This document shows positions 21,511-37,318 of a stretch of 54,286 nt of DNA, in pieces. Origin of the DNA: an uncultured Verrucomicrobia subdivision 3 bacterium. GTDB lineage: Bacteria > Verrucomicrobiota > Verrucomicrobiia > Limisphaerales > UBA11358. The translations under genes were made by a program, and so were the position numbers. The notes beneath the pieces were generated by a model. That model saw nothing but the letters and a program-made list of their open reading frames with translations, had not been told where the DNA came from and searched no databases. Where the stretch lies: contig CAIQEI010000032.1 of NCBI GenBank assembly GCA_903870815.1, positions 1-54,286 on the forward strand, read 5' to 3'. Position 1 is the stretch's first letter; each line of letters starts with the position of its first letter.

Positions 21511-23394
21511 TTACCAGCCGCCCCCTCCTCCGCCACCGCCTCCGCCGCCTGATGAGCCGCCGCCGCCGCCCCCACCGCCGCCGCCGCCCCCACCGGAACT
21601 CGAACCCGGCGCGGTCGAGGCCGAGGAAATGGCCCCGGCCAGCGAACTGCTGAACGCCGTGGCGAAACCCGCCGTGGTCGCATGATTCCAGGAATCACCG
21701 GAATACCATGCCGGAGTATAATGGCTTTGGCCGGGCGCGGTTCCGGCCGCCGCGAGCACGCCCGCAAATTGTTCCGACCATTTTTGTTCGACGCTGAGCG
21801 CCAGCGCATAGGGCAGGAACATTTCAAACAACTGTGGCGTGCGTTCCGGCGGGTTTTCCAGGTTGAGCCGGTCTTTTTCCGCCACGCTGAGATACATTTT
21901 GAAACCCTCGATTTCGTCCATGATTTTCCGCCCATCGGGCGTGTAGGCCTTTAGCAGAAAATGAAAGATGCCGGCGAGAGCGCCCAAGGCCAGTGGCAGG
22001 CAGACCAGCAAAACGGGCAATTGAAAATATCTCATCGCCGCGCCGGCGGCAAACAAGGCAACCCCGCCCAGCAACACCCGTAACACCCAATGCATCCGGT
22101 GGCCGAGGGCGATGAATAGCAGTGGCGCGAAAAAACAAATGCCGGCGAGAATTGCCATCGGTACAGGCTGGGCTGAATCCAGAAACATCGCCGCGAGGCT
22201 GGCGATGCCGAGAAGGATCCCGAAACAGCTGTAAGCGAAATTGTGCTTGAAGAACCGGCCTTGGATTTGCTCGGCCAGTGACTCGCGCAGTTTATTCTGC
22301 GCGGATTGCAATGTGGCGTAATCCTCCTGCCGCAAGGTGAGCGGCAATCCGTCGCCGACCAGCTCGCGGCGGACGCTGTCCTCGGCGGCGGAGATTTCCG
22401 CGTGTGCCTGCGGCACCGGCAGCAGGGTGTAAGTCCGCTTGCTGAAAATCCCCCCTTTGCGCTCAATGATCTTGATCGCGCCTTTGACGGCCAGGTTCAT
22501 GACCGTGGCGGTGAAGGTTTTGTTGTCGTAGCCCATGCGCCAGAGATAGCGGACGGCCGCCGGTGAAAAATCCGCTGGCGGCGCGTAGCGCGGAATGATG
22601 ACACCCCGGCGCGGATCTCGCCCGACCATTTTCCACGCCGTTAAGTAATAGAGCAGGACCACCAGGCAACCGGCGGCGCAAAGCGCCAGGCCGCGATTGT
22701 CTTTCAGTATGTTCAGCAGCTTCGTGAAAGCCGGGGGTGGCGTGACAAATCCCTTCGGCCATTCTACGACGATAGTCAGACCCTCCGCGGGCCAGAGCCG
22801 TCGCGTGGTGGCGAAACTGGCGCGGTCATTCAGGTTGGTGACGGTAAAGTCGCGGCCGCGGGCGCCTTGCGGGCCCGTGTAGGCCGTCAGGTTTTTGACC
22901 GTCGCGCCGGCTGGTAAAATCACCGTGGCGTTTACGCGGTTCATCGGAAAATTCCAGCCGTTGCCGGTCACGTTCCAGTAGAGCTCGTCGTGGTCGGAAA
23001 AAAATCCGAGCTGCCGGTCTGTCGTGTAGGTCAATTGATAAGTATGGACGCCGGGATTGACCTCTGCGGCGGCCGAGCCGATGTAAACGCGCGTGCCGTT
23101 CTCGCGGTCGGCGAGGTGATAATCCTCGGGCTGGCCGTCACAAATAACCTGCTGCACCGCAAAACCGGTCTTGATCCGCAGTCCGCCGGTCGATGCGTAG
23201 AGCTGCGGAAAATCGCGATAGATGCCGTGTCGGATCTGGACGCCTCCGGCCTGCACCTGGATGGTTTCCGTGACGCTCAAGGCGCCGTTGGCCCGTATCT
23301 CGATCCGGCTATCGAACTGGTAAATTTGCTCCGGCTCATCCGCGCGACCGGCCGCCGCGACGAGCAAAACCAGGGTGGTGAACAGGCGCTTCAT
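21511..23394 (-). CDS. DUF2207-family membrane protein with Gly-rich tail
   Basis: Signal peptide, GIYRDFP, DELYWNVTGNGW, LPYALAL, terminal GGGGGGGW. ATGA overlap with lemA. Confidence 0.92.
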   Translation of the reverse strand: MKRLFTTLVLLVAAAGRADEPEQIYQFDSRIEIRANGALSVTETIQVQAGGVQIRHGIYRDFPQLYASTGGLRIKTGFAVQQVICDGQPEDYHLADRENGTRVYIGSAAAEVNPGVHTYQLTYTTDRQLGFFSDHDELYWNVTGNGWNFPMNRVNATVILPAGATVKNLTAYTGPQGARGRDFTVTNLNDRASFATTRRLWPAEGLTIVVEWPKGFVTPPPAFTKLLNILKDNRGLALCAAGCLVVLLYYLTAWKMVGRDPRRGVIIPRYAPPADFSPAAVRYLWRMGYDNKTFTATVMNLAVKGAIKIIERKGGIFSKRTYTLLPVPQAHAEISAAEDSVRRELVGDGLPLTLRQEDYATLQSAQNKLRESLAEQIQGRFFKHNFAYSCFGILLGIASLAAMFLDSAQPVPMAILAGICFFAPLLFIALGHRMHWVLRVLLGGVALFAAGAAMRYFQLPVLLVCLPLALGALAGIFHFLLKAYTPDGRKIMDEIEGFKMYLSVAEKDRLNLENPPERTPQLFEMFLPYALALSVEQKWSEQFAGVLAAAGTAPGQSHYTPAWYSGDSWNHATTAGFATAFSSSLAGAISSASTAPGSSSGGGGGGGGGGGGGSSGGGGGGGGGGGW

Positions 23395-23963
23395 AGTTTC
23401 ACCTCCGGCGCGTTGCGTTCGGTGGCGGTTTCAATTTCAAAAAATTCCGCCGGGTGGAATTTGAAACCGCGCGCCACCAACAAGCTGGGGAAGGTTTGGA
23501 CGAGGTTGTTCAAGTCGCGTGCGGAGCCGTTGTAATAGCGGCGGGCGAACTGGATGTCGTTTTCCACCTCCACCAGCGTGGCGCTCAATTGCCGGAAGTT
23601 TTGGTCGGCCTTGAGGTCGGGGTACCCCTCAGCCACCGCAAACAGGGAGCGTAGATTTTGCGTCAGGCCATTTTCCGCAGCGGCGGTGCCGGGAATTCCC
23701 TGCGCCGTTTGCGCCGCGCTGCGCTCGCGGGCTACGGCTTCCAGGACGTTTTGCTCATGGCTGCGATAGCCTTTGACGCATTCGACCAGGTTGGGAATCA
23801 GGTCATGCCGGCGTTTCAACTGCACATCCACACCGCTCCACGCCTCGCGCAACTGGTTTTGGAGCGCTACCAGCCGGTTATAAACCCAGCCTGCATAAAT
23901 CAGCGCCAATGCCAGAACCCCGCCAATGCCGGCGACCAGCATCAATCCCTCGCGTGAATTCAT
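23391..23963 (-). CDS. lemA: LemA family protein
   Basis: YNRLV, WSGVDVQLKRRHDLIPNLVE, YPDLKADQNF, ARRYYN. Start is 23963 or 23942. Confidence 0.95.
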   Translation of the reverse strand: MNSREGLMLVAGIGGVLALALIYAGWVYNRLVALQNQLREAWSGVDVQLKRRHDLIPNLVECVKGYRSHEQNVLEAVARERSAAQTAQGIPGTAAAENGLTQNLRSLFAVAEGYPDLKADQNFRQLSATLVEVENDIQFARRYYNGSARDLNNLVQTFPSLLVARGFKFHPAEFFEIETATERNAPEVKL

Positions 23964-24257
23964 CCGTGGATTAAAGGAAAAACCATCCGACAATTCAAGC
24001 TTCAAACTTTGATGGCTCGTTGTGAAGAAGTACACCCAGGCTCTCTTCAAAAGCGCTTGTTCATCCGAGTGCCTTTCGTTTTATTATTGCAAGCGGATTG
24101 AACAAGACTAAAATCACGAAATGAGCCTGTTGCCATTCTTCAGGCCAGCATATTTTGCCATAAACTGCGCAGGCCTTACGAACCCGCCGTCAATACCAGT
24201 ACAGACGCTATGTAGGCGTATTAACGGAACTACCTGGATGCAAATAATTGAAAAACT

Positions 24258-25685
24258 ATGAACCGGCTTCTGGCTATATTCTTAGCTTTATCTTTAGCTC
24301 TTTCAGCGGACGGGTATTCCACCCCTCCTATTCAACATAATCCTTGGACGACTAATTCAGCAGCAAATCTACCCGCCCCATCAACTGTACTCACCGCTGG
24401 CCAAATAGCTAGAGTGGATACCAGTTTGTTTGCCAGCAATAACATAAACTTGCAGGCTATGATTAATTCCCTTCCAGCGGCGACAAAAACCCCGCTCCCT
24501 GGAGGTGGTACGATTGAGCTGGGCAAAGGTGTTTTCTATACCTCCTCAGGCAACCTGTTTACCGGCAGTGGCGGTCAGGCGTTACGCATCATCGGCCAAG
24601 GAATCAACCAGACTTATTTGGTGTTCACAAACCCGGGCGACGGTTTAACGGTAAATGGCACTCTTCCCTACAACACGTCGCTTGAATTAAAAGACATCAC
24701 CGTAGCCGCGAGTTACGATACCGCCAATTTCTTGATAGTAAACCACAGCACATCGGTCACGACTTTTAAAGAGGCGTGCTTCGCCTACTGGCCAGCTTTG
24801 TTGTGTCAAAGCCTTCCTTTGAATGTATGTGCCTACGGTAGCGCCGCAGCCACACTGTTGTGTGGTGTTAATTTGGCAGACTCAGAAGGATTGCTTGACA
24901 CCTTTGAGGACTGCTATTTCACCTCGTTAGGTGCGGGTGTAAGGGTGAACAATGACCATTTGCGAATGATAAACTGCCAATTCACGGCCGTCGGGGTCGC
25001 GCAGGACGCAATGTATTTTTATACAGGCGGTTATGGCGGCGCTTTACCGCCAGACCCCAGAGCTGCCAGTTTGCTCACCAACAACTGGGTGACTGTCGGA
25101 ATACCAGACCTTAATGCCAGAGCCTGCATTACGGTGACGGGAGGGTTTGATGATGATGAGTTTTACGGTTGCTACTTTGTATTTTCTCACGCAATTATCC
25201 TGCTTGACCGCTCCCCCATCACTTCGGGTTACATGGGGCATGAGGTCTTCGCCGGTGGGCACATTGAAGGGTTGGTTTATCGCACCATTGTCGCCAGCAA
25301 CACTCCCAATTGTCCCGCAAGTTTATCGGGCGGTACAATTCAGTTCGTTAATTGCGACAATTTTAATTATTCGGCTTATGGCGCGGACGCTGACCAGATT
25401 GCGACTTGGGGTCAAATAACCGGCGGTGGGAAGGTTGCATATTCCACTGCCACCGCACCCAATGTGTTTGAACAAAACAGTAAAAACAATCTGTCATACG
25501 ATTTTTATGCTGGTGGCACTAAAGTGCTGTCGCTATCCAACAACACTGTGGTCATACCAAACCTCGTTGCAAATGAAATCAATATAAATGCTCCTACATC
25601 TTCCCCTCCAGCTTCAATTTCATCTTTTAAGGGTGGTATAACTATCACAAACAACGGCGTGGTTTATCACATTCCGATATATTAA
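24258..25685 (+). CDS. Secreted pectate-lyase-like beta-helix / tailspike-like protein
   Basis: Signal peptide; LQAMIN...GGGTIELGKGVFY...LRIIGQG beta-helix cap motif; Asn/Thr/Gly-rich body; AT-rich codon use. Confidence 0.6.
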   Translation: MNRLLAIFLALSLALSADGYSTPPIQHNPWTTNSAANLPAPSTVLTAGQIARVDTSLFASNNINLQAMINSLPAATKTPLPGGGTIELGKGVFYTSSGNLFTGSGGQALRIIGQGINQTYLVFTNPGDGLTVNGTLPYNTSLELKDITVAASYDTANFLIVNHSTSVTTFKEACFAYWPALLCQSLPLNVCAYGSAAATLLCGVNLADSEGLLDTFEDCYFTSLGAGVRVNNDHLRMINCQFTAVGVAQDAMYFYTGGYGGALPPDPRAASLLTNNWVTVGIPDLNARACITVTGGFDDDEFYGCYFVFSHAIILLDRSPITSGYMGHEVFAGGHIEGLVYRTIVASNTPNCPASLSGGTIQFVNCDNFNYSAYGADADQIATWGQITGGGKVAYSTATAPNVFEQNSKNNLSYDFYAGGTKVLSLSNNTVVIPNLVANEININAPTSSPPASISSFKGGITITNNGVVYHIPIY

Positions 25686-26095
25686 ATGCCACACTTCCCC
25701 ACAATCCTTCCGCATTTAGCTTTCTGCTGGTGGCAATAATGGTGCTGGCTATGGGACTGCGGATGAATCTTGATTGTGAGAATGCGAATGGTTAGCATTG
25801 GCGCATCTTCGAACTGACTGCATTTCTGTTCTTAACTACCGACGGTCTCAAGAAATTCTTGCCGTAAAGGGTCCGTCAATGCACTCACTTCATGCCTGCC
25901 AAAGCAACCTCGTCCTCTTTCCAGTTCTGCCAAGTCGGGTTACCGAAACTGCTTAGCATGTGCGAATCGTAAATGCAGGTTTCCAAACGAGCTTGAAATT
26001 TGAAGACTAGAGGCGAATAATTGCCCAGAGAATCCGATTTATCGCCTTCCAACTCTGCGTCTCTGCGTTTGATGCCGTGTCTGCTTGAATGCCGG

Positions 26096-26701
26096 CTATT
26101 CCGGCATTTTCAGCAACTGCAGCCCGCTCATCGGCTGTGGGCTCGCGCCGAGACCGGCCCTTACTTTTTTAACATCGTCGCCTGTCACCGGGCCGGCGTT
26201 GTTGCCCCAACTGCTTCGGATGTAGGTCAGCGTGGCGGCCAGATCTTCATCCGGCAACGCTGCCCCCATCGCGGCCATCGCCAGTCCCCAGTCCTGGCCT
26301 TTGACCCGGATAGGCCCGTTGAGGCCAGCCAGCGGTATGTGGATCAGCCGGTTGACGCCCGCGCAATTAACCATTTCTGACCCCGCCAGCGGCGGTGCCT
26401 GCCCGGGTTTGCCCAAACCATCGGTCCCGTGGCAGATGCCGCAAACGGCTTCGTAAGTCCTCTTTCCGCGCGCCAGCGCCGCCGCCGCCCCGGACTGCGG
26501 CTGGTAGGCGTCCAATTTTTCCGCGCTATAATAGGGCGAATAAACCTTGGCGTTGAACCAGCCGCCGTGCAGGTCGAAATAATAGCCGCCGAGAAAAAGC
26601 AGCAGGAGCGTGGTGACGATGATCCACATCGGCGCGGCCGAACGCGTGGCGGTCGGTTCACCGGTAGTCGGGAGGGAACAGGCTTTGGTTTCGTCGCTCA
26701 T
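26096..26701 (-). CDS. Membrane-anchored monoheme cytochrome c
   Basis: N-terminal TM, CGICH, PPLAGS, Met-ligand region AMAAM, TYIRSSWGN. Confidence 0.92.
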   Translation of the reverse strand: MSDETKACSLPTTGEPTATRSAAPMWIIVTTLLLLFLGGYYFDLHGGWFNAKVYSPYYSAEKLDAYQPQSGAAAALARGKRTYEAVCGICHGTDGLGKPGQAPPLAGSEMVNCAGVNRLIHIPLAGLNGPIRVKGQDWGLAMAAMGAALPDEDLAATLTYIRSSWGNNAGPVTGDDVKKVRAGLGASPQPMSGLQLLKMPE

Positions 26702-26704
26702 CGC

Positions 26705-27589
26705 TTATTTCGTGGCCGCGAGCGGGGTGAACGGCGCTTCGTAAAGCGGCACGTTGGCCTTGAGGCTCAATAGATAGGCGGCAAGTTCCTTCGCCTCCGG
26801 CTTCGGCACCACTTCGTAGCCGGCTTCGGCGGCAAATTCCTTGGGCAGCGTCAAAGCCTCGGGCGAGGCTTCACCGTTGATCTTCGGGCGGACTTCAAAG
26901 AGAAACTTGAAGGACGGCATGGTCGACCCCGGCGTGATGGATTTCGGCGCGTAAAGATGCTGCAACTGCCAGCGGGCATCTGGCGCGCGGACGCCGATGT
27001 TCGCGAGGTCAGGTCCCGCGCGCAGGCTGCCGAGCTGAACCGGCTGGTCGTAAAGATAATCCGCTGCGACGCTCAGGCGCGAACCCCAGCCGCGCGTGAT
27101 ATCCGGGCCAGTGGCGACGATCCGCGTCTCGGAATTGACGCCGGCGGCCTTAAGGCGGTCGCCCATCTCCGAGGCGATGTCCTTGTCGGTGCAAACCAGC
27201 AGCGCCTTGGGCACTCCTCCGTTCCAGCCCTTGAGATTGTCGCTCATGGCGTTGGTGTAATCTGCCAGTTCCGGCAGCACAAACAGCGATTTGGCGAAAG
27301 CCGTGAATTCATCCGGCTTGTGCGTGCCCAGGTCGGTCAAGGTGACTTCAAAGGCCGCCCCGTCCTGGCGGACCTGTTCCGTGTGGCACGCGGCGCAGCC
27401 ATAGGCCCGATACACCTGCAAGCCGAGCGTGGCGGCGCCGGTGCGCTGCAGCGGCCAGTTGTCGGTGGATTGCAGAACCACGGTCTGCTTTGCGCCGCCG
27501 AGCTGCAGCGTGGGCGCGAGCACAAATCCGCACCACGAAGCGCCGAGCGCTACCAGGGTGGCGATAAAGATTGAGATGCCGCTTTTCAT
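26705..27589 (-). CDS. cbb3 oxidase subunit II (CcoO/FixO)-like cytochrome c with inserted domain
   Basis: N-terminal TM, GCAACHTEQVR, GPDLANIG, HLYAP...GSTMPSF; about 80-aa insertion after the heme motif. Confidence 0.85.
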   Translation of the reverse strand: MKSGISIFIATLVALGASWCGFVLAPTLQLGGAKQTVVLQSTDNWPLQRTGAATLGLQVYRAYGCAACHTEQVRQDGAAFEVTLTDLGTHKPDEFTAFAKSLFVLPELADYTNAMSDNLKGWNGGVPKALLVCTDKDIASEMGDRLKAAGVNSETRIVATGPDITRGWGSRLSVAADYLYDQPVQLGSLRAGPDLANIGVRAPDARWQLQHLYAPKSITPGSTMPSFKFLFEVRPKINGEASPEALTLPKEFAAEAGYEVVPKPEAKELAAYLLSLKANVPLYEAPFTPLAATK

Positions 27590-29049
27590 GATTTCACCTC
27601 CCCTGCTCCGCTCCGGAGTGTCACCGGGGCCGTCTCAAGCGGCGACTTGATATAGGCAATGACCGTCTTGGCCAGACCGAGCTTCCACTGAATGGTCATG
27701 ATCAGTATGTTCGCGGCGAACAGCAGCGCGCCGAGCAGGATCAATAGCTGGCCGGTGGTGCTGATGCGCAGAAATTTCAAGGCCGCGGAATTGACCTCGG
27801 CGAAGGGAACCGTAGCATCCGCTAGCTTCCCGCCTTGCGCCATGCCGGCGAGCACCAGCGGCACGACCAGCAGCAGCACGCCGGCGGTGCCCAGCCAGGA
27901 ATGCAGCCGTACGGCTTTTGGCAGCGGCAGCGGCTTGCCCATCACCGCCGGCAGCAGCTCATAAACCGCGCCGAACAGGATCATCGCCGTGAACCCGAGC
28001 AGTTGCAGTTGCGTCTGGGCGGTGCCGAACCAGGTGAACTCCAGGATGCGGCTGTATTGCGGACACGCGGCCGAGACGTAAAGAACGCCCGAAATGATGA
28101 AGCACAGCACGCCAAACCTGATGAAGCAGAATGGCCCGCCTTTGCATGCAACGCCGGCCCCGCAAACTGTCTTCCAGGTGACGATCGTGATCGCCAGCAA
28201 TGGCAACAGCGTCAGCGCCGCCGCTACGCTGCTCAACACCGGCAGCCACGCCGGCACCGGCGCGCTTTGCGGTATTCCGCACCAGGTGCCGAAGAAAATA
28301 AGCGTGAGAAAGGCGAACAGCACGTAACCCGAATTGGCGAGCGGCCGGCCGGCGATTTTCGGCAGGAAGTAAAATGCGGTTCCGATGCCCATCAGCGCCA
28401 GCCACACAAAGACCAGGTTGTTCGCAAACCACCAGGCGATGATCGGCTGCACCACGCCGCGCGGCACTTGATTGGAATTCAAAAAAAGATTGGCCGTCGA
28501 ATAGATCCACGGGAACCAGAGCAACGCCGCCAGCAGGAACCAGTGCGAGGGATACAGCGGGTTTTCCTTGCGCCAGCCAAACGTGGCCGCCGCCGAAACC
28601 GCGATCAGCAGGAACGCCGCGAAGAGGAGTACCGCCGCCGCCCGCGGATATTCCAGCCAGGTGTGACCGGTGCTATCGCCCAGCAGAATGCCGGCCGTGC
28701 CCACGAAGACGCCGAGATGCCAGAGGTTCGCCGCGACCACCGGTACGAGCGGCAGCGCGAGCGGTGACCGGCTCAACCGCGCAAATATCCACAGTGCCAC
28801 GCCCAGCGCCGCCGGGATGCAGAATCCGTAGAGCACGGCGTCATTCGCCGCCGGTGCCACGCGGCCGTAGGTGAACAGCGGACAGCCGCCCAGAAAATCC
28901 GGCGCGTGAAATTTGATGCCGGCGATGAGGCCGAGCCCCAGCCCGACCACCAGCCAGACCGCCGCGCCGCCAAACAGCGCCAGCAGCGGCACGCGCAACG
29001 AGGCTTCAAGTTCGTTCGGGCGGGAAGTTGTGTTCTCGGTCGGGTTCAT
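27586..29049 (-). CDS. cbb3 oxidase subunit I (CcoN)-like 12-TM protein lacking the metal-ligand histidines
   Basis: CcoN framework retained (TYGRV.P, WLEYP, LYPSHWF, WWF.NN, FYFLPK, FTW, LLGF, HSWL) but His ligand positions are substituted. Confidence 0.85.
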   Translation of the reverse strand: MNPTENTTSRPNELEASLRVPLLALFGGAAVWLVVGLGLGLIAGIKFHAPDFLGGCPLFTYGRVAPAANDAVLYGFCIPAALGVALWIFARLSRSPLALPLVPVVAANLWHLGVFVGTAGILLGDSTGHTWLEYPRAAAVLLFAAFLLIAVSAAATFGWRKENPLYPSHWFLLAALLWFPWIYSTANLFLNSNQVPRGVVQPIIAWWFANNLVFVWLALMGIGTAFYFLPKIAGRPLANSGYVLFAFLTLIFFGTWCGIPQSAPVPAWLPVLSSVAAALTLLPLLAITIVTWKTVCGAGVACKGGPFCFIRFGVLCFIISGVLYVSAACPQYSRILEFTWFGTAQTQLQLLGFTAMILFGAVYELLPAVMGKPLPLPKAVRLHSWLGTAGVLLLVVPLVLAGMAQGGKLADATVPFAEVNSAALKFLRISTTGQLLILLGALLFAANILIMTIQWKLGLAKTVIAYIKSPLETAPVTLRSGAGEVKS

Positions 29050-29399
29050 TCGAAAGATTCGGCCTTCACCGGCGCCAGCGATTTCTCCACGCGCTCATTT
29101 AAGTCGGCGCGCGCGGCGGCGGGATTCCGCCCTCTCTGCGCCGCCAGTTGCATCGCGGTTTCGATCGGCAGCCGCACGATGCCGCGCTGGGCGTCAATGA
29201 TCGCCGGCCGGTTCAGGCAATTTTCCTCCTCCGCGAGGATTTCAGCCAGCGCCTTGGTGCGCGCGGCGGCGGGATCGGCGTCAATGGCTGGAACGGGCAA
29301 GGTCAGCTTCACGGCGACGGTCACCGCGGCGAACAGCACGCTGGCAATGAGCAGCCCGATCGCTGCCCCGGACGCGCGGTTGATGGTTTGATAATTCAT
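29046..29399 (-). CDS. ActG-like single-TM subunit of alternative complex III
   Basis: ATGA overlaps on both sides; IDAQRGIVRLPIETAMQL matches the D...G.VRIPI..AM motif of ActG-type subunits. Confidence 0.7.
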   Translation of the reverse strand: MNYQTINRASGAAIGLLIASVLFAAVTVAVKLTLPVPAIDADPAAARTKALAEILAEEENCLNRPAIIDAQRGIVRLPIETAMQLAAQRGRNPAAARADLNERVEKSLAPVKAESFE

Positions 29400-30646
29400 C
29401 GGGCACCTCCGGCGTTGGCTTCTGTCAGGTCGCGCACGGTGTTTTGACTCACGCCCATCGCTTCCAGCAGGCGCGGGTCGCGCTGCGGATACGGCGGATG
29501 CGCGTTGAACTTCTTCAGAAAAACCTTTGCCAGCAGTCCGCCCATGAACATCAGGCAGCCGATGGGCAGCCAGACCCACTTGAAATGATAGCCATAGGGA
29601 TGCAGCGCCGGGAAAATGTTGAAGCCCAGGTCCAGCGCGTGCATCAGCCCGATCCACAGGCAGACGGGTATGATGACCTTGAAATTCATCTTCACTTTCT
29701 CCGGCAGCAGCACGAAGAACGGGATGAAGAAATGGCCGAAAATCAAAACCAGGCTCAAGCCCCACCAGTTGCCGCGTTCCCGGATGAGATACCAGAAGGT
29801 CTCCTCCGGCATGTTGGCGTTCCATACCACAAAGTATTGGGCGAACTCTGTGTAAGCAGAGAACAGCGTGAACCCGAGCAGCAGCACGCCGAGGAAATAA
29901 AAATAGTTCCGCTTCATGACCGGCGCGATGATGCGCTGGCGAACCAAAACCGCCGCGATGACGTAGACCGTGGCCAGTCCGATCCACGCGCAATCGGAGA
30001 AGAAATAAACGCCGTAGATGCAGGAAAACCACTGGTAAGACGTCGCGTTCATCCACAATACGCCGGAATACGTCAGCGTCAGCGCATACGCCACGATCCC
30101 CCAGCCGGAATAGAACCGCAGCTTGCGCGTGCAGTCAGCCGCTCCGGTTTCATCCTGTTTCAGCGACCAGCGGCTCAACTGTGATGAGAGCAGCCACCAG
30201 ATCCCGAAGAATAGCGCCGAGGCTGCCCAGAAACCGGCGGTGGTGAACACCGGCAGCTTGGCCGCCACTAGATTGTTCGTGGCGGAATCCAGCGTCATCC
30301 ACTGGTAAATCTTCGGCCCGAGCAGGCCGATCGGCAAGAACAAAATGGCCAACCACGGGAACAATAACGTCGCAAGGTGCTCGCAAAACCGGCGGATACC
30401 GACCGACCAGCCGGCGTCCGTCAGATGATGCACCATCACCAGAAACAACGCGCCCAGGGCGAGGCTGTAATAGAACATGAACGCCAGCAGCCAGGAAAAA
30501 CCGAATTCATGCAGGTCGTTCCGCTGGTAACTCAGCGCCGCGCCGATGGCGCACAAAATGCCACCGACGACCATCAGGCGGGCCGGCAGCTTCCGCCAGC
30601 GGGACAGGTCCAGCGGCGGCGGCAGATGAGTGGTGTCGTGACTCAT
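29396..30646 (-). CDS. actF: Alternative complex III subunit ActF (membrane)
   Basis: About 10 TM; AGWSVGIRRFCE, WFSCIYG, FAQYFVVWNANMPEET; position in the act cluster. Confidence 0.88.
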   Translation of the reverse strand: MSHDTTHLPPPLDLSRWRKLPARLMVVGGILCAIGAALSYQRNDLHEFGFSWLLAFMFYYSLALGALFLVMVHHLTDAGWSVGIRRFCEHLATLLFPWLAILFLPIGLLGPKIYQWMTLDSATNNLVAAKLPVFTTAGFWAASALFFGIWWLLSSQLSRWSLKQDETGAADCTRKLRFYSGWGIVAYALTLTYSGVLWMNATSYQWFSCIYGVYFFSDCAWIGLATVYVIAAVLVRQRIIAPVMKRNYFYFLGVLLLGFTLFSAYTEFAQYFVVWNANMPEETFWYLIRERGNWWGLSLVLIFGHFFIPFFVLLPEKVKMNFKVIIPVCLWIGLMHALDLGFNIFPALHPYGYHFKWVWLPIGCLMFMGGLLAKVFLKKFNAHPPYPQRDPRLLEAMGVSQNTVRDLTEANAGGAR

Positions 30647-30647
30647 A

Positions 30648-31301
30648 TTATTTCAGGGCGGCGGACTGCTCCGCCGTCAAATCGTTGGTCGTTCCCAGCC
30701 AGCTTAATTGCAGCGCGCGCAGATAGGCGATCACCGCCCAGCGGTCCTCCGTCGGCAGCAGCGGGCCGGCGGCGCCCATCAGGCCCTTGCCGTAGCTGAC
30801 CGTGTTGAAGATCTCGCCGTCCGTCATCTCGACGATGCGCTGGTCGTGCAGGTTCGCCACCGCCGCCATGACGCCGATTTTCTTCGTGATGCCGTTGCCG
30901 TTGCCCAGCCGTCCGTGGCATGGCGCGCAATAAATATCAAACCGTTCGCGTCCGCGCTGGAGCAACGCTTCGTTCACGGCCAGCGGGTTCGTCTCAATAA
31001 AGTTGGTCATGCCGGCAACCCGGCCCGTGTTCACCGGCGAATCTTCAAAGCGGTAAACGCTGCCATTCGCCGTCTCGATCGGCTGGCTGCGCGCTACTGT
31101 GCCGGCGGGGGGCAACTGTGAGCTGAGGCCGTTCGTGAAAAAACGGAACGGCTCCTGCGGCCGCAATTTCGCCTGGCGGTCCATGTCGGGAAACAGCTCA
31201 AACGGCGGCTGGCGCATCATCCGGCCCTGCAAACCGAGCATCCCGAACAACGCCGCGCCGATGGCTGCGCCAATCAATAAAATGGAGACGTAATAGCGCA
31301 T
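30648..31301 (-). CDS. actE: Alternative complex III subunit ActE (monoheme cytochrome c)
   Basis: FPDMDRQAKLRPQ, PAGTVAR, RGRERFDIYCAPCHG, GKGLM, DRWAVIAYLRALQ. Start at ATG 31301 (TAATG overlap with actD). Confidence 0.9.
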   Translation of the reverse strand: MRYYVSILLIGAAIGAALFGMLGLQGRMMRQPPFELFPDMDRQAKLRPQEPFRFFTNGLSSQLPPAGTVARSQPIETANGSVYRFEDSPVNTGRVAGMTNFIETNPLAVNEALLQRGRERFDIYCAPCHGRLGNGNGITKKIGVMAAVANLHDQRIVEMTDGEIFNTVSYGKGLMGAAGPLLPTEDRWAVIAYLRALQLSWLGTTNDLTAEQSAALK

Positions 31302-31840
31302 TAGTCGTGGTCCTCCACCAGGGCGACGTGTGCGCCGCCGATCCCTTCCAGCAATTTCCGGGTCTCCGTGGCGCAAAACTTTTCATCCTGCGCGCCGATG
31401 ACCAGTATGAACTTGTCGCGCGAGACGAGGTCAAACCGCTTGTGGTCCAAGAGCGGATGATGCAGGCGCGGGAGCTGGTTGAGGCCGAGCATTCCCACGA
31501 GCGCGCCGATCGCCCCGCCCATTATGAGCATGATGTAGGACGGCACAAACGTCATCGGCACGCTGAACATCGGCTTGCCGCCCACGATGAGCGGATAATC
31601 AAACGCGTTCGTGAACCAGAGCAGGCCGACCACCGAGGCAAAAGCGCCCGCGCCCATCGCGAGCGAGACCCAGCCCACCAGCGAATTGCCCAGTTGCATC
31701 ACCTGGTCCATGCCGTGAACCGGGAACGGCGTGAATGCGTCCCAGCGGCGGTACCCGGCGTCGCGGACTTTTTTCGCCGCGCGCAAAATGGCCGCGGGCG
31801 AATCAAATTCCGCGCTGATCCCGTAAAGCTTTTCACTCAT
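31301..31840 (-). CDS. actD: Alternative complex III subunit ActD (DUF3341)
   Basis: AEFDSP, DAFTPFPVHG, DYPLIVGGKP, LPRLHHP. Confidence 0.92.
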   Translation of the reverse strand: MSEKLYGISAEFDSPAAILRAAKKVRDAGYRRWDAFTPFPVHGMDQVMQLGNSLVGWVSLAMGAGAFASVVGLLWFTNAFDYPLIVGGKPMFSVPMTFVPSYIMLIMGGAIGALVGMLGLNQLPRLHHPLLDHKRFDLVSRDKFILVIGAQDEKFCATETRKLLEGIGGAHVALVEDHD

Positions 31841-33272
31841 GGCCGGCCCCCTTTGTTGCGCCGCCCAGCGGATGATGCGGGTCGGCTTCGGGCATGACCC
31901 CCTTCACTTCGGAGATGGCGATGACCGGCAGGAATTTCACGAACAGCAGATAGAGCATGAAAAACGCACCCAGCGTGCCGACGTATAGGCCGATGTCCCA
32001 GATCGTCGGCATGTATTTTCCCCAGTTCGCCGGCAGAAAATCCTGGTACAGCGAGCCGACCACGATCACAAAGCGTTCGCTCCACATGCCGATGTTGATC
32101 AGCAGGCCGATCACAAAGAGCGCCCACAGATTGGACCGGATTTTTTTGAACCAGAGCAGTTGCGTCACGCAGACGTTGATGCCGATCAAAATCCAGCCCA
32201 TCACCATGTAGGTATGCCCGAAGAGCCGGTGCCCGAACACCCAGCGTTCATACGGGTCGCCGCTGTACCAGGCGATGAAAAACTCCATCATGTAGATGTA
32301 GTCAATGATCAGGCCGCTGACCAAAGCCAGCTTCGCCACCGTGGCGATGTGGCTTTTGGTGATGATGTTTTCGAGGTTACACAGCTTGCGCAGCGGAATC
32401 AGCAGCACCAGCATCATGCCGAAGCCGCAGAACACCGCGCCGATGACGAAGTAGAGCGGGAATATCGTCGCGTGCCAGCCCGCAATCTGCGCGGTGCAGA
32501 AGTCGAGACCGACGATGGAACTCACCGTGAACACCAGCAGCGTGCACAGGCCGCACAGCACCACGTAGGCCTTTTCATAGTTATGCCACTGCCGCGCCGA
32601 ACCCGTCCAGCCCATCGCAAGAAAAGTGAAAATGGTTTTGCGGATGCGCGTGGTCGAGCGGTCGCGCAGGACGGCAAAATCCGGAATCATCCCCATGAAC
32701 CAAAACAGAGACGAGACCACGAGATAAGTGTTCACTGCAAACACGTCCCACATCAGCGGCGATTTGAATTGCGGCCATAGGCCGTTTGAATTCGGCACCG
32801 GAAACATGAACCAGTCGAACCAGGCGCGGCCGACGTGAATGGCCGGATACAATCCCGCCATCATCACGGAAAAAACCGTCATCGCCTCGGCCATGCGGCC
32901 GATGGTGGTGCGCCAGTGCTGTTTGGTCAGAAATAGCAGCGCCGAGATCAGCGTGCCCGCGTGCGCGACGCCAACCCACCAGATGAAGTTGACGATATCC
33001 AGGCCCCACATCACTGGATGGTTATTTCCCCAGACGCCGACGCCTGTGAACACCTGATAAAACAGACAGACCGGGAAAATGACCGTGGCCGCAAAGGCCG
33101 CCGGCAGAAATACAATCCACCACCAGAGCGGCGTCTTCGCCTCGGCAAACGCGGACAACTTGTCCGTCAGCCAGCCAAGTCCCTGGTTGCCTTCAACCAC
33201 GGGTGCGCGACCCAGCTCCGCCGGCGGCGCGAGCCGTTTCAATTCTTCAAGATTGGTCACGGAGTCAGCCAT
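31833..33272 (-). CDS. actC: Alternative complex III subunit ActC (NrfD/PsrC family)
   Basis: [62 protein letters not shown]. Confidence 0.94.
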
Positions 33273-36200
33273 TAGCTGGTTCCTTTCTTGGTCAGGCTGC
33301 CGTTTTCATATTCCTCGGTGCTGAAGGGATCATGATAATCCGGCATATGCGGATTCGGATTGCGGATCCGCGCCAGGTACGTCGTGCGCGGCTTAGTGAG
33401 CAAATCCGCGAGCACGGAATAATTCTGCGGCAGCAATTTCAATTTCGACACCGAGCTGTCGGGGTCGCTGACATCGCCAAAAGTGATCGCTCCCGCCGGA
33501 CACGCCTGCTGGCACGCGGTCTTCGGCACCGTTCCCGCCGCCTCTGATAGCCGCACGTGGTCGCTCGCGCCCGCCTTCGCTTTCTGCGCAATCTTCGCGT
33601 GCTCGATGCGCTGCGTGCAATAGGTGCACTTCTCCATGACGCCGCGCATGCGCACCGTTACGTCGGGATTCTTTGAGAGCTTAATCAGGTCCCATTCGTC
33701 TTCCGAGCGCATCCCGCTGTTCGGATCCTTCCACCAGCGCAGCAAATCCCATTCGCCATCCGTCTTGTGCGTTAGCGTGGTTGAATAGATCGTCCCCTTC
33801 AGCTCGGTCAATGGCCGCTTGTTGAAATCTAGATAATTGAAGCGCCGGACCTTGTACGGGCAGTTGTTTGAGCAATAGCGCGTGCCGATGCAACGGTTAT
33901 ACGCCATGACGTTCAAACCTTCCTGGTCATGGACGGTCGCGTTCACGGGGCAGACGCTTTCGCACGGCGCCGCTTCGCATTGCTGGCACAGCATTGGCTG
34001 GTTGACTGCCTGCACGTCGTCAATCCATTCCGCAAACTGCTGCTTCTCGTCGGTCTGGTTTTCGTCCGACCGGGGATCAAAGATGCTTGGATTATTTTTC
34101 CGCTTCGGATCGCTGGTGTAATAGCGGTCAATGCGCATCCAATGCATCTCCCGGCCGCGCTTCACCTGGTCTTTTCCGACGATCGGAATGTTGTTCTCGC
34201 TCTGGCACGCGACCACGCAGGTCCCGCACCCGACACAGGCGTTCAAGTCCACGGTCATGCCCCACTGGTGCAATGCCGTCTTCTTCGCCTCGTCGAGCGG
34301 GTTCGGATACAGCGACTGAACCACCGGCGGTTCGACGCCATGAAATTTTTCCTGGGCGAACGTCGGTTCCTTGATGAACTCGTCGAGGTTCGCCTCGCGC
34401 ACCGCCGGCCGGCCTTCCATACTCCAATGATGCTGCGTGCAGGCAAGTGTATAAGTCTCGCCGGTCTTTTTGATCGTCGCGCCGGTCTCGATATATTTGC
34501 CGAAAAAAATCTTGTAGGCGTTGAAGCCGACGCCAGTGCCGACGCGTCCGGCTTTCTCGCGACCGTAACCCAGCGCGAGGCCGAGCGAATAATCCGCCAT
34601 GCCCGGCTGCGTCCAGATCGGACCGGAAACGGTTTTGCCGTTCAAAGAAATTTCGACGATGTCGCCATTCGCCACGCCAATATCACGCGCCGTCTTGCGG
34701 CTGATGAGCACGGCGTTATCCCACGTCATCTTCGTGATCGGATCCGGCAACTCCTGCATCCAGCCGTTGTTTGCGTAACGCCCGTCGTCCAACTTCGCGT
34801 CGCGATAGAAAATTACTTCAAAGCCATTCGCTGAAGGTGGGGAATAGCTTTTAATGAATGGAGCCTCGATGGCCTTTCCATTATCATTCGTCGGCACGGC
34901 CTTTGCTGATTGCACATAACCAGCAAACAAAAACTTCTTCCAGTTTTCATCCGTGTCGCCAAAACCCGAACGGACAATTTCGTAGGCGCTGGTTTGTGAT
35001 TCACCAGCAATGCGCGCGATAAATTCAAGTTCGTTTAAGCCGCCAAAGAGCGGTTGGATAAGCGGCTGCACCGGAACCATCGATCCATCGCTCGTGATTG
35101 CATCGCCCCATGATTCTAAATAGTGCGTTGCTGGAAAATTCCATTTGGATTTTTCCGTTGTTTCGTCCTCATAGTAACCGAGGCGAACAACGGATTTTGC
35201 TTTCGATGACCAGTTCAGATTATAAGCTGGGTTGCCGCCAAGAATGATCAGCGTATCAATTGAATCGCTGTCGAGATTCTTCAAATCCGCGCCTGCAATT
35301 TCCGCCGGTTGAGACAAATAGACGCTTCCATTAGCATTGAGCGAACTCGGCATCAGGTCGATTGTATTACCAAAAGCACCGAGTGCTGAATTAATTGCCA
35401 ATGCGAGTAAATGAACTTCAAGCGGTTGACGCTGGCCGGTAACGACCAAGGCATTTCCGGGATTTGCAGCTAAATCTTTAGCGCATTCGGAAATCCATTT
35501 TGCATCCAGACCGGCTGGCACGGTGACTGGTGCTGATTTAGCTTGCGGAAGTGTCAACCCAAAGACCTCAAGAGAAATTGCTTGTGCAATCTGGCCAATC
35601 AAACTTGCGGCAACACGCAGCCGGTGATCCGCGCTCGCGCCGGTGAGCGTGAACAACGATTCCACCGCGTAAAGCCGGCTCATCCCCTCGCCTGCCTTGC
35701 GGCCGGCGGCAAATTTGCGGATGTGATTATGGCTGTCATCCTCGCCGCCGAGAAAATCGCAGTCCAGCGACAGAATGACCTTTGCCTTGTCGAAATGGAA
35801 CACCGGCTTCACCGGCCGGCCGAACGCCTGCGTCGCCGCGCGCTGGTGGATGCCGGAATCAATCGCATCGTAGGTGAACCATTGCGACTTCGGGAATTTG
35901 TCCGCAATGATTTTTTGCAGCCGCGCGCGAGATGGCGAAGTGCTGCTTTCGGCGAGGAAAGCCAGTCCTTCGCCGGATTTCGCCGCAAACTTCTTCGATA
36001 GCTCGTCAAGGAACCCCAAGGCTTCTTCGCGCGAAACGACTTTGCCATCATGCTTGAAATGCCGCGCGCGGTCGGGATCGTAAAGGTCCAGGATCGATGC
36101 CTGCGCGTAGCGGTCGGTGCTCCCGTTGCTGCCGGGATAAAGTGAATTGCCTTCGATTTTGACCGGCCGGCCTTCGTAAGATTTGACAACCAATGGAATC

Positions 36201-36523
36201 GCGCCGGTGCGCGTGGGCATGGCGGTCGCAAAATACTGCGCGTCGCCATACGTATAATTCTCCGGCTGCTTGCCGTAAGGTTCGAGCTTCTCTTCCGGCC
36301 GGCGGCAGCCTGCGCCGAGCGTCGCGATGCCGGCAAAGGCAAACGACGCCGACATGATTTTCAGGAAATTGCGGCGGCTCTGGCCGTCCTCCACCATCTC
36401 GCTGGCGCCGACGGGAAATTCGCGATGCAGCCAGTCCTTGAACTCCGGCGTATCCGCCAGTTCATCCAAGCTCCGCCAGTAGCGCTTGCCAGTTGCTGAA
36501 TTTGATGTTGGCGAATGGTTCAT
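33272..36523 (-). CDS. actB: Alternative complex III subunit ActB (molybdopterin-oxidoreductase-like plus Fe-S domains, Tat-exported lipoprotein)
   Basis: YWRSLDEL, SRRNFLK twin-Arg, AGC; CVGCGTCVVAC, CQQC...PCESVCP, CIGTRYCSNNCP, CTYC...ACQQACP. Confidence 0.95.
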   Translation of the reverse strand: MNHSPTSNSATGKRYWRSLDELADTPEFKDWLHREFPVGASEMVEDGQSRRNFLKIMSASFAFAGIATLGAGCRRPEEKLEPYGKQPENYTYGDAQYFATAMPTRTGAIPLVVKSYEGRPVKIEGNSLYPGSNGSTDRYAQASILDLYDPDRARHFKHDGKVVSREEALGFLDELSKKFAAKSGEGLAFLAESSTSPSRARLQKIIADKFPKSQWFTYDAIDSGIHQRAATQAFGRPVKPVFHFDKAKVILSLDCDFLGGEDDSHNHIRKFAAGRKAGEGMSRLYAVESLFTLTGASADHRLRVAASLIGQIAQAISLEVFGLTLPQAKSAPVTVPAGLDAKWISECAKDLAANPGNALVVTGQRQPLEVHLLALAINSALGAFGNTIDLMPSSLNANGSVYLSQPAEIAGADLKNLDSDSIDTLIILGGNPAYNLNWSSKAKSVVRLGYYEDETTEKSKWNFPATHYLESWGDAITSDGSMVPVQPLIQPLFGGLNELEFIARIAGESQTSAYEIVRSGFGDTDENWKKFLFAGYVQSAKAVPTNDNGKAIEAPFIKSYSPPSANGFEVIFYRDAKLDDGRYANNGWMQELPDPITKMTWDNAVLISRKTARDIGVANGDIVEISLNGKTVSGPIWTQPGMADYSLGLALGYGREKAGRVGTGVGFNAYKIFFGKYIETGATIKKTGETYTLACTQHHWSMEGRPAVREANLDEFIKEPTFAQEKFHGVEPPVVQSLYPNPLDEAKKTALHQWGMTVDLNACVGCGTCVVACQSENNIPIVGKDQVKRGREMHWMRIDRYYTSDPKRKNNPSIFDPRSDENQTDEKQQFAEWIDDVQAVNQPMLCQQCEAAPCESVCPVNATVHDQEGLNVMAYNRCIGTRYCSNNCPYKVRRFNYLDFNKRPLTELKGTIYSTTLTHKTDGEWDLLRWWKDPNSGMRSEDEWDLIKLSKNPDVTVRMRGVMEKCTYCTQRIEHAKIAQKAKAGASDHVRLSEAAGTVPKTACQQACPAGAITFGDVSDPDSSVSKLKLLPQNYSVLADLLTKPRTTYLARIRNPNPHMPDYHDPFSTEEYENGSLTKKGTS

Positions 36524-36655: not shown

Positions 36656-37318
36656 TTAGCGATGGCACGCCGAGCAGCTTTGCAGTGATTCAACTTTCCA
36701 GTCGTGCACAAACTTTTTCCCGTTCACCTCCTGCAAATGTTCGGCTTCGGCGGCGTTCGTGCTCCACTGCCAGCCGAGATCCGTGACTTTGCTTGGTGGA
36801 CGAATATTGGCCGCGGGATCGCGATGGCAATCCAGGCAGAAACTCATGCTCATGGACTTGACCTCGCGCACTTCGTCCATCTGGTCCACGCGCCCGTGGC
36901 AGGCCACGCAACTGATGCCGCGCGTGACATGGACCGAGTGGTTGAAATAAACGTAGTCCGGCACGATATGCACCTGCACCCACGGCACTGGCGTGTTGTT
37001 CGCCGCGCTGTCGCGGATGATTTGCAGCCGCGGATCATCCTTCAGCACCTGGTTATGGCAGTTCATGCAGGTGGACGCGCCGGGAAGATTCGAGAACCAG
37101 GATTTTTCCACCCCGTTGTGGCAATAGCGGCAGTCCACGCCGAGCTGGCCCGCATGGATTTTGTGCGAAAACGGCACCGGCTGCACCGGCTGGTAGCCGG
37201 CGCGGGTGTACTTGGGCGTGAGATAATACGTCACGCCCGCCGCCACGCCGCCGCCGGCCAGGCCCGCTCCGATCAAGAGCACCAGCGGCAAACTGTTTGT
37301 CCACTTCGGAAAAATCAC
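36656..37318 (-). CDS. actA: Alternative complex III subunit ActA (pentaheme cytochrome c)
   Basis: N-terminal TM, QPVPFSHKIH; five CxxCH (CRYCH, CMNCH, CVACH, CLDCH, CSACH). GTG start. Confidence 0.94.
   Translation of the reverse strand: MIFPKWTNSLPLVLLIGAGLAGGGVAAGVTYYLTPKYTRAGYQPVQPVPFSHKIHAGQLGVDCRYCHNGVEKSWFSNLPGASTCMNCHNQVLKDDPRLQIIRDSAANNTPVPWVQVHIVPDYVYFNHSVHVTRGISCVACHGRVDQMDEVREVKSMSMSFCLDCHRDPAANIRPPSKVTDLGWQWSTNAAEAEHLQEVNGKKFVHDWKVESLQSCSACHR

Follow-up and report, generated by a model that had tools for sequence, protein, structure and literature searches.

The described systems closest to the locus reported here are cytochrome c oxidases of the cbb3 type, with CcoN (FixN) as catalytic subunit, and the supercomplexes of alternative complex III (ACIII) with a caa3-type oxidase. 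ACIII itself holds an example of a catalytic fold kept structurally after cofactor loss, the molybdopterin-free domain of ActB, in a fold that differs from that of CcoN. Solved CcoN/FixN proteins from Pseudomonas stutzeri (3MK7, 5DJQ) and P. aeruginosa (8SMR) have twelve transmembrane (TM) helices and a CcoO-type monohaem subunit as partner. In Flavobacterium johnsoniae and Rhodothermus marinus, for which such supercomplexes are reported, the ACIII genes adjoin those of the oxidase, and electrons are thought to leave the haems of ACIII for a membrane-bound haem c that belongs to the oxidase (PMC5928083, PMC8552683; Sun et al. 2018, as cited in PMC8498564). Other Verrucomicrobiae carry canonical ACIII-linked cbb3 operons in the order ActABCDEF, CcoN, CcoO and cytochrome c. 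The window analysed here is a 54,286-nt stretch of DNA (positions 1 to 54,286 of contig CAIQEI010000032.1, GenBank assembly GCA_903870815.1) from an uncultured Verrucomicrobia subdivision 3 bacterium of the order Limisphaerales. It contains an ACIII operon of the same order, in which a CcoN-like gene forms part of a conserved string with ActABCDEF and encodes a protein that lacks every canonical cofactor ligand.

The ORF (open reading frame) at 27586-29049 on the minus strand begins with ATG, has no internal stop and encodes 487 aa, a length similar to that of CcoN; it had been described as a full-length, intact CcoN homologue in a first-pass annotation made from the sequence alone, and rightly so. 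Pfam COX1 (PF00115) covers residues 24-435 (118.9 bits against a gathering score of 34.8), and the top PDB-chain match found by phmmer was P. stutzeri CcoN (3mk7_A, E 2.4e-23). Along this alignment, by which the residues of 3mk7_A were numbered, H60, H207, Y251, H257, H258, H345 and H347 fall opposite A68, N210, G254, P260, Q261, Q345 and Q347. Following the 3MK7 literature, we assign these residues of the solved chain to haem b, to CuB, to haem b3 and to the cross-link Tyr. On this assignment the bis-His pair of the low-spin haem b (H60, H347) is replaced by A68 and Q347, the proximal His of haem b3 (H345) by Q345, the three-His set of CuB (H207, H257, H258) by N210, P260 and Q261, and the Tyr cross-linked to a CuB His (Y251) by G254. 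The same seven columns read HHYHHHH in a MAFFT alignment for an annotated Rhizobium binae ccoN, a Paraburkholderia CcoN and 118/118 Gemmatales-type CcoN; the columns are correct because annotated and canonical CcoN all read alike there. The annotated loss of all six haem and CuB histidines and of the Tyr thus stood up to both alignments. The four motifs that had been quoted from this protein are present, from residues 62, 206, 254 and 338, whereas the last canonical motif was misquoted: the solved chain reads HVHAGALGW, not HVHSGALGW.

The protein has five His in all (48, 111, 129, 169 and 383), and none lies in the ligand-bearing helices of its AlphaFold2 (AF2) model (TM2 61-93, TM6 200-233, TM7 240-254 with the loop to 267, and TM10 340-370). 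Other histidines at ligand positions, which the annotation had named as evidence to the contrary, were therefore not found. Replacement His ligands were ruled out: H48 and H383 are no substitutes, because canonical relatives that retain all six ligands carry the same residues. R63, E133 (aligned with E125 of 3mk7_A) and H383, conserved in canonical CcoN, are retained here; position 130, aligned with E122 of 3mk7_A, is Thr. Against the NCBIfam equivalog TIGR00780 (ccoN) the protein scored 110.8 bits, below the cut-off of 583.15. The sequence thus all but establishes that catalysis has been lost, and the CcoN-like protein is almost certainly not an oxidase.

The AF2 model, built from a family alignment of 147 rows, has twelve long helices, a mean predicted local distance difference test (pLDDT) score of 95.3 and a predicted template modelling (pTM) score of 0.93. 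Foldseek against the PDB ranked the CcoN chains 8smr_E, 9g6b_A and 3mk7_A first (template modelling scores 0.85-0.89, root-mean-square deviation 2.0-2.4 Å, ~450 columns), followed by NorB and A/B-type subunit I. By its sequence matches and its predicted structure, the protein is a member of the haem-copper oxidase subunit I superfamily that keeps the 12-TM fold.

Relatives were collected by scanning a single genome of each species, which gave 598 pattern matches, of which 470 were confirmed; the best 80 loci were used. All 80 are from metagenome-assembled genomes, titled mostly Verrucomicrobia subdivision 3, Limisphaerales or Verrucomicrobiia, with some other or evidently wrong labels. The CcoN-like gene is complete in 78 of the loci and interrupted by contig ends in the remaining two. 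None of the 79 complete sequences (78 loci and the query) has a His at any of the six ligand sites. The replacements within this set are A68 in 79/79, N210 in 64/79 (Asp in 9), P260 in most, Q345 in 62/79 and Q347 in 77/79. The median ratio of nonsynonymous to synonymous substitution rates (dN/dS, Nei-Gojobori) was 0.204 over 141 pairs with dS<0.8, after exclusion of high-scoring segment pairs spanning <80% of the query. For the same pairs the neighbouring genes gave 0.105 (ActC), 0.157 (ActB), 0.193 (ActF), 0.213 (CcoO-like), 0.235 (cytochrome c) and 0.270 (small ORF). Purifying selection thus acts on the CcoN-like gene about as strongly as on the genes beside it in the operon, and the intact frames together with the dN/dS values rule out a pseudogene. 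The earlier suggestion that the fold is selected, rather than the gene decaying, is thus borne out by 79/79 intact sequences, by a median of 0.204 rather than a value near 1, and by a confidently predicted CcoN fold.

The operon comprises ten co-directional genes, with the CcoN-like gene eighth, as follows:

36656..37318, minus strand: ActA-like multihaem cytochrome c (NCBIfam QrcA-like, 82.7 bits)
33272..36523, minus strand: ActB, molybdopterin-oxidoreductase-like and 4Fe-4S domains, Tat-type N-terminus (Fer4 families, QrcC/QrcB-like matches, TIGR04519)
31833..33272, minus strand: ActC, NrfD-like quinol-interacting membrane subunit (Pfam NrfD, 55.6 bits)
31301..31840, minus strand: ActD (Pfam ActD PF11821, 180 bits)
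30648..31376, minus strand: ActE-like monohaem cytochrome c, 242 aa (Pfam Cytochrome_CBB3, 46.5 bits)
29396..30646, minus strand: ActF-like ACIII membrane subunit, 416 aa (named from operon position; no Pfam or NCBIfam match)
29046..29393, minus strand: small conserved ORF, 115 aa, one predicted TM helix (no Pfam match)
27586..29049, minus strand: CcoN-like protein, 487 aa (Pfam COX1, 118.9 bits; alignment to 3mk7_A)
26705..27589, minus strand: CcoO-like monohaem cytochrome c, 294 aa (Pfam FixO, 74.1 bits, residues 171-236)
26096..26701, minus strand: membrane-anchored monohaem cytochrome c of the c552 / NirK C-terminal-domain type, 201 aa (Pfam Cytochrom_C and Cytochrome_CBB3)

The same gene order was found in 80/80 Limisphaerales loci, as far as the contigs extend, and in 18/20 diverse loci of the class. 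The small ORF and the CcoN-like gene were each counted in all 80 loci, ActF in 79, the CcoO-like gene in 78 and the cytochrome c gene in 64; by tblastn, the small ORF was flanked by ActF on one side and the CcoN-like gene on the other in 80/80 loci. Its look-alikes in the Atlas were unnamed Verrucomicrobiota clusters. A genome bearing pmoA has a 123-aa ORF at the same position (L104:8579-8950). The ActD and ActE frames as listed overlap by 76 bases (31301-31376), and the true ActE start may be further downstream.

A TM helix at the N-terminus, a CxxCH motif (C65, C68, H69) and Met224-Pro225 mark the CcoO-like protein. Its haem-c site and Met ligand region align with those of solved CcoO (6xkw_o, 3mk7_B), and C65, C68, H69, M224 and P225 are invariant in 27/27 aligned CcoO-like sequences. 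In this order an insert of ~85-95 aa (residues ~76-170 here) separates CxxCH from the FixO core; it had no family match. Most other families have CcoO-like proteins of 210-240 aa without the insert, and most of it is deleted in locus L005. The best PDB matches of the c552-like cytochrome c were the cytochrome c domain of a Cu nitrite reductase (E 8e-20) and Thermus c552 (E 3e-14). Both partner cytochromes retain their haem-c sites and are predicted to be haem-c competent. Unlike in cbb3, where the dihaem CcoP is found, the window has the monohaem c552-like protein in this place.

When the CcoN-like protein was modelled together with its CcoO-like partner, the interface score (ipSAE) reached 0.88, against 0.00 for the best control; in calibration, 58/80 solved complexes and 2/110 mismatched pairs reached the mark. 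The model runs had at least 95% of contacts in common, with a partner pLDDT of at least 81, and the TM helix and haem domain of the CcoO-like protein lay on the same face as in cbb3. Because cbb3 complexes have already been solved, the prediction may draw on those known structures, and its pass speaks for CcoN-CcoO likeness only, not for binding.

Other oxidase genes were found in the window's genome, which is 96% complete. An A-type COX1 (437.7 bits) stands beside a haem O synthase-like gene (CtaB) and COX3, the COX2 has a CuA-type motif and no CxxCH, and cytochrome bd is also encoded. We found neither FixS/CcoS nor FixH/CcoH in this genome (CcoG and CcoI were not searched for), in which it again differs from the cbb3 system, and no FixO other than the CcoO-like gene of the operon. 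In the ACIII-caa3 supercomplexes the haem c is part of the A-type oxidase; here COX2 has no haem-c motif, and the haem-c proteins would instead be attached to a dead C-family subunit.

The wider family was examined through 8000 scored candidates, of which 1051 were homologous proteins at E<=0.001; a search of representatives gave 317 clusters at 50% identity with E<1e-30. Among the best 150 representatives and the query, 127/151 were within a length filter of 430-560 aa. Of these 127, 78 had no His at the six sites, 37 had one, 8 had two, 1 had three, 1 had four (an Opitutales protein), and 2 had all six together with the Tyr. All seven sites vary freely across these representatives: position 68 is A in 64, F in 14, Q in 11 and S in 11, and position 345 is L in 40, Q in 21 and R in 14. 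A search of genomes of the phylum gave a match at E<=1e-10 in 121/401, and our census covered 96 CcoN regions in 94 Verrucomicrobiae genomes. ActF lay just upstream of CcoN in 93/96 of the regions, and a CcoO-like gene with CxxCH was present in 96/96. At the seven sites 50 copies read HHYHHHH and 46 were degenerate. Two families contained both states: f6 had 22 canonical and 4 degenerate copies, and f7 had 13 and 23.

In the CcoN trees, the lineages nearest to the degenerate copies were the canonical ACIII-linked cbb3 of Verrucomicrobiae and the cbb3 of Gemmatales. FastTree placed the degenerate copies in a single clade that needed 2 changes. We distrusted this result on account of the long branches, the interleaved ActF, ActC and ActB trees, and the finding that degenerate copies share their highest identity with canonical copies of their own family. 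The ActF tree, with 92 rows, agrees with the family codes; it requires 12 changes, and well-supported branches force 9 or more of these. The ActC and ActB trees (17 and 16 rows) need 5 changes each, with degenerate and canonical loci interleaved. The degenerate copy of L091 is 61% identical to a canonical copy of its own family and 42% to the best degenerate copy of another; the corresponding values are 52% and 42% for L111 and 51% and 40% for L089. A CcoN tree under the LG+C20 mixture model put a trio of degenerate f6 copies inside canonical f6 and forced 3 changes, with a stem of 0.47 for the trio against ~0.1 for its canonical neighbours. On these trees the ligands were lost independently at least three times, probably more, and perhaps 9-12 times. 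Partial states were also seen (HHAQYHH, HNSQRYH, HHGQHFI, HSAQKFI); they fit, without proving, an order in which CuB and the Tyr were lost first and the haem ligands later.

Two further kinds of CcoN match were observed beside the census. A Paraburkholderia fungorum plasmid (NZ_CP099624.1; locus L086, 7713-12878) carries a canonical CcoN followed by CcoO, cytochrome c and a P-type ATPase. This CcoN has 46-52% identity to Gemmatales CcoN and ~30% to rhizobial FixN, with similar genes on Ralstonia megaplasmids, and belongs to a separate cbb3 lineage shared by more than one phylum. Many Verrucomicrobiota genomes have a second, weaker CcoN match (70-90 bits) in frames of 720-860 aa (e.g. G351:C133, G330:C60), which are probably fused CcoN-CcoO oxidases; the window's genome has no such second match.

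The constraint left after ligand loss was assessed against a canonical set of 48 ACIII-linked copies, omitting two copies without an ACIII link. Of the 181 positions conserved to at least 90% in this set, 58 were kept and 83 lost in the 46 degenerate copies. Conservation ratios were lowest in TM7, TM8 and TM9 (0.52-0.58) and highest in the periplasmic loops (0.68-1.01). The lost positions include the ligands, E130 and many polar residues of TM6-TM9, all of which canonical CcoN has; the kept positions are mostly Gly, Pro and Trp, together with R63, R91, K231, R368, H383 and E133. Such a pattern suggests that the body and the periplasmic face of the protein have been preserved, and speaks against preservation of a proton path. 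Since dS is saturated across the class, low-dS pairs alone were used; for close pairs (dS<0.5) the median dN/dS was 0.22 in nine degenerate pairs, in contrast to 0.023-0.028 in two canonical pairs, the pairs being few and between kin.

With a probability that we put at roughly 60%, the CcoN-like protein is a cofactor-free scaffold that holds haem-c proteins at ACIII, from which electrons leave to another oxidase. It would have descended from the CcoN of a cbb3 oxidase linked to ACIII, but be non-catalytic: without haem b, haem b3 and CuB, it would reduce neither O2 nor NO. Its 12-helix body would dock the membrane-anchored CcoO-like haem-c subunit, which would explain its retention, and probably docks the c552-like cytochrome and ACIII as well. 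ACIII would oxidise menaquinol and send electrons via ActA and ActE to the CcoO-like and c552-like haems, and these would pass them to a separate terminal oxidase, here of the aa3 type without a cytochrome c domain of its own. The absence of cofactors from the real protein, the complex with ACIII and the electron route to aa3 are what we infer. A haem-copper oxidase core that is under selection without any cofactor, and the repeated loss, would point to a structural need inside an ACIII assembly.

Several observations weigh against the scaffold. The modelled CcoO interface was not significantly enriched in kept residues (17/58, against 15/83 of the lost; Fisher p 0.15), and a pure scaffold leaves the conserved polar residues N210, Q345 and Q347 unexplained. 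Constraint is clearly relaxed: relative to ActF, dN was 1.71 for degenerate pairs (216 of them) but 0.56 for canonical ones (30). Class-wide dN/dS reached 0.51-0.56, at saturated dS, and one close pair gave 0.76. The aa3 genes of the window's genome are on a separate contig from the ACIII operon. COX1 occurred within 10 kb downstream in only 2/80 Limisphaerales loci (4-5 kb downstream), and adjacency to aa3 genes was also seen in 2/8 canonical-type diverse loci and is hence not specific to the degenerate form. No RNA run was listed for 26096-31376, and one run of unknown kind contained 0.27 of its sequence words.

In one rival reading, the emptied cavities have gained a ligand-binding or conducting role, such as a lipid or quinone pocket or an Asn/Gln-lined water or ion path, and so add a function to ACIII. 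The conservation of A68, N210, P260, Q345 and Q347, partly polar, in Limisphaerales and the retention of R63, E133 and H383 speak for it. We nevertheless consider it improbable, as the seven positions vary freely over the 127 representatives of the wider family, and TM7-TM9, with the canonical polar residues there, are the least conserved part, in keeping with 83/181 positions lost. Among the non-redox roles floated in the first-pass annotation, a scaffold fits best; ion conduction along the former proton path is disfavoured by the low conservation of TM7-TM9 and their polar residues. The ACIII operon context, the haem-competent partner cytochromes, the size of the family and the recurrence of the loss go beyond that annotation. 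It is far less probable that a redox cofactor is held by non-His ligands and the protein is still a reductase. Databases do label it cbb3-type cytochrome c oxidase subunit I, and its partner cytochromes are intact, as they should be in a protein that still receives electrons. However, the six sites of the query are Ala, Asn, Pro, Gln, Gln and Gln, with no His, Met, Cys, Tyr or Lys among them, the ligand positions are variable among relatives, and CcoS and CcoH were not found in the 96% complete genome. Least probable of all is a functionless relic in decay that has merely not yet been lost, for although the degenerate copies evolve faster than canonical ones (dN relative to ActF, and the 0.47 stem of the f6 trio), the frame is intact in every locus not cut by a contig end, dN/dS is ~0.2, the homologues form 317 clusters at E<1e-30, and the gene has been retained in every one of several lineages with independent ligand loss.

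Gene order offers a link to the aa3 oxidase. In 5/11 degenerate diverse loci, the genes immediately after that for cytochrome c are A-type COX1/COX3. In a single genus, four genomes (2.2-2.4 Mb) each have three or four copies of pmoA, and the sole CcoN homologue in each of these pmoA-bearing genomes reads SESSHFV at the seven sites. These copies scored ~50 bits on PF00115, with no match among those listed for genome G132, and the one copy compared with solved CcoN (9g6b_A) gave 28.5 bits. In pmoA-bearing genome G279 the string runs ACIII, small ORF, CcoN-like, CcoO-like, cytochrome c, COX1, COX3, COX4, COX2. Papers on Methylacidiphilum place ACIII beside 'cbb3' and aa3 genes and regard the 'cbb3' as a high-affinity oxidase (PMC8498564, PMC6688271, 10.1101/2024.01.15.574570). 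The G279 string matches that published arrangement, and the pmoA-bearing genomes presumably belong to Methylacidiphilum. It is conceivable, though we would not expect it, that on several occasions, perhaps nine or more, Verrucomicrobiae converted the catalytic subunit of an ACIII-bound cbb3 oxidase into a cofactor-free adaptor, each time retaining it along with its haem-c partners, and that it now bridges ACIII and aa3 within a supercomplex of three parts. In that case the 'high-affinity cbb3 oxidase' of many Verrucomicrobia, including acidophilic methanotrophs, would not exist as an oxidase.

The presence of ccoN is widely taken as a marker of high-affinity, microaerobic respiration. For Limisphaera and for verrucomicrobial methanotrophs, genome papers list cbb3 as a terminal oxidase and tie it to growth at low O2 (PMC13608581, PMC8498564, PMC6688271, 10.1101/2024.01.15.574570). 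If about half of the ACIII-linked copies of the class (46/96) cannot bind cofactors, such inferences would need gene-by-gene checking. A full-text literature search gave no account of a ligand-less CcoN, although a remark in older papers on ACIII operons or cbb3 evolution cannot be excluded. As far as we have seen, the recurrent loss, the occurrence of both states within families, and the pmoA-bearing genomes with the degenerate form joined to aa3 genes are new.

Directly downstream of the operon, the stretch 24001-26000 has a low GC content (0.475 against ~0.60-0.63 in the flanks) and may be a foreign insertion. It holds an ORF on the plus strand (24258-25685) of 475 aa with no Pfam family. 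Two minus-strand genes were also observed at 21511-23394 and 23391-24050: a LemA family gene and, next in line, one for a DUF2207 membrane protein with a long Gly/Ser run at its end (GSSSGGGGGGGGGGGGGSSGGGGGGGGGGGW).

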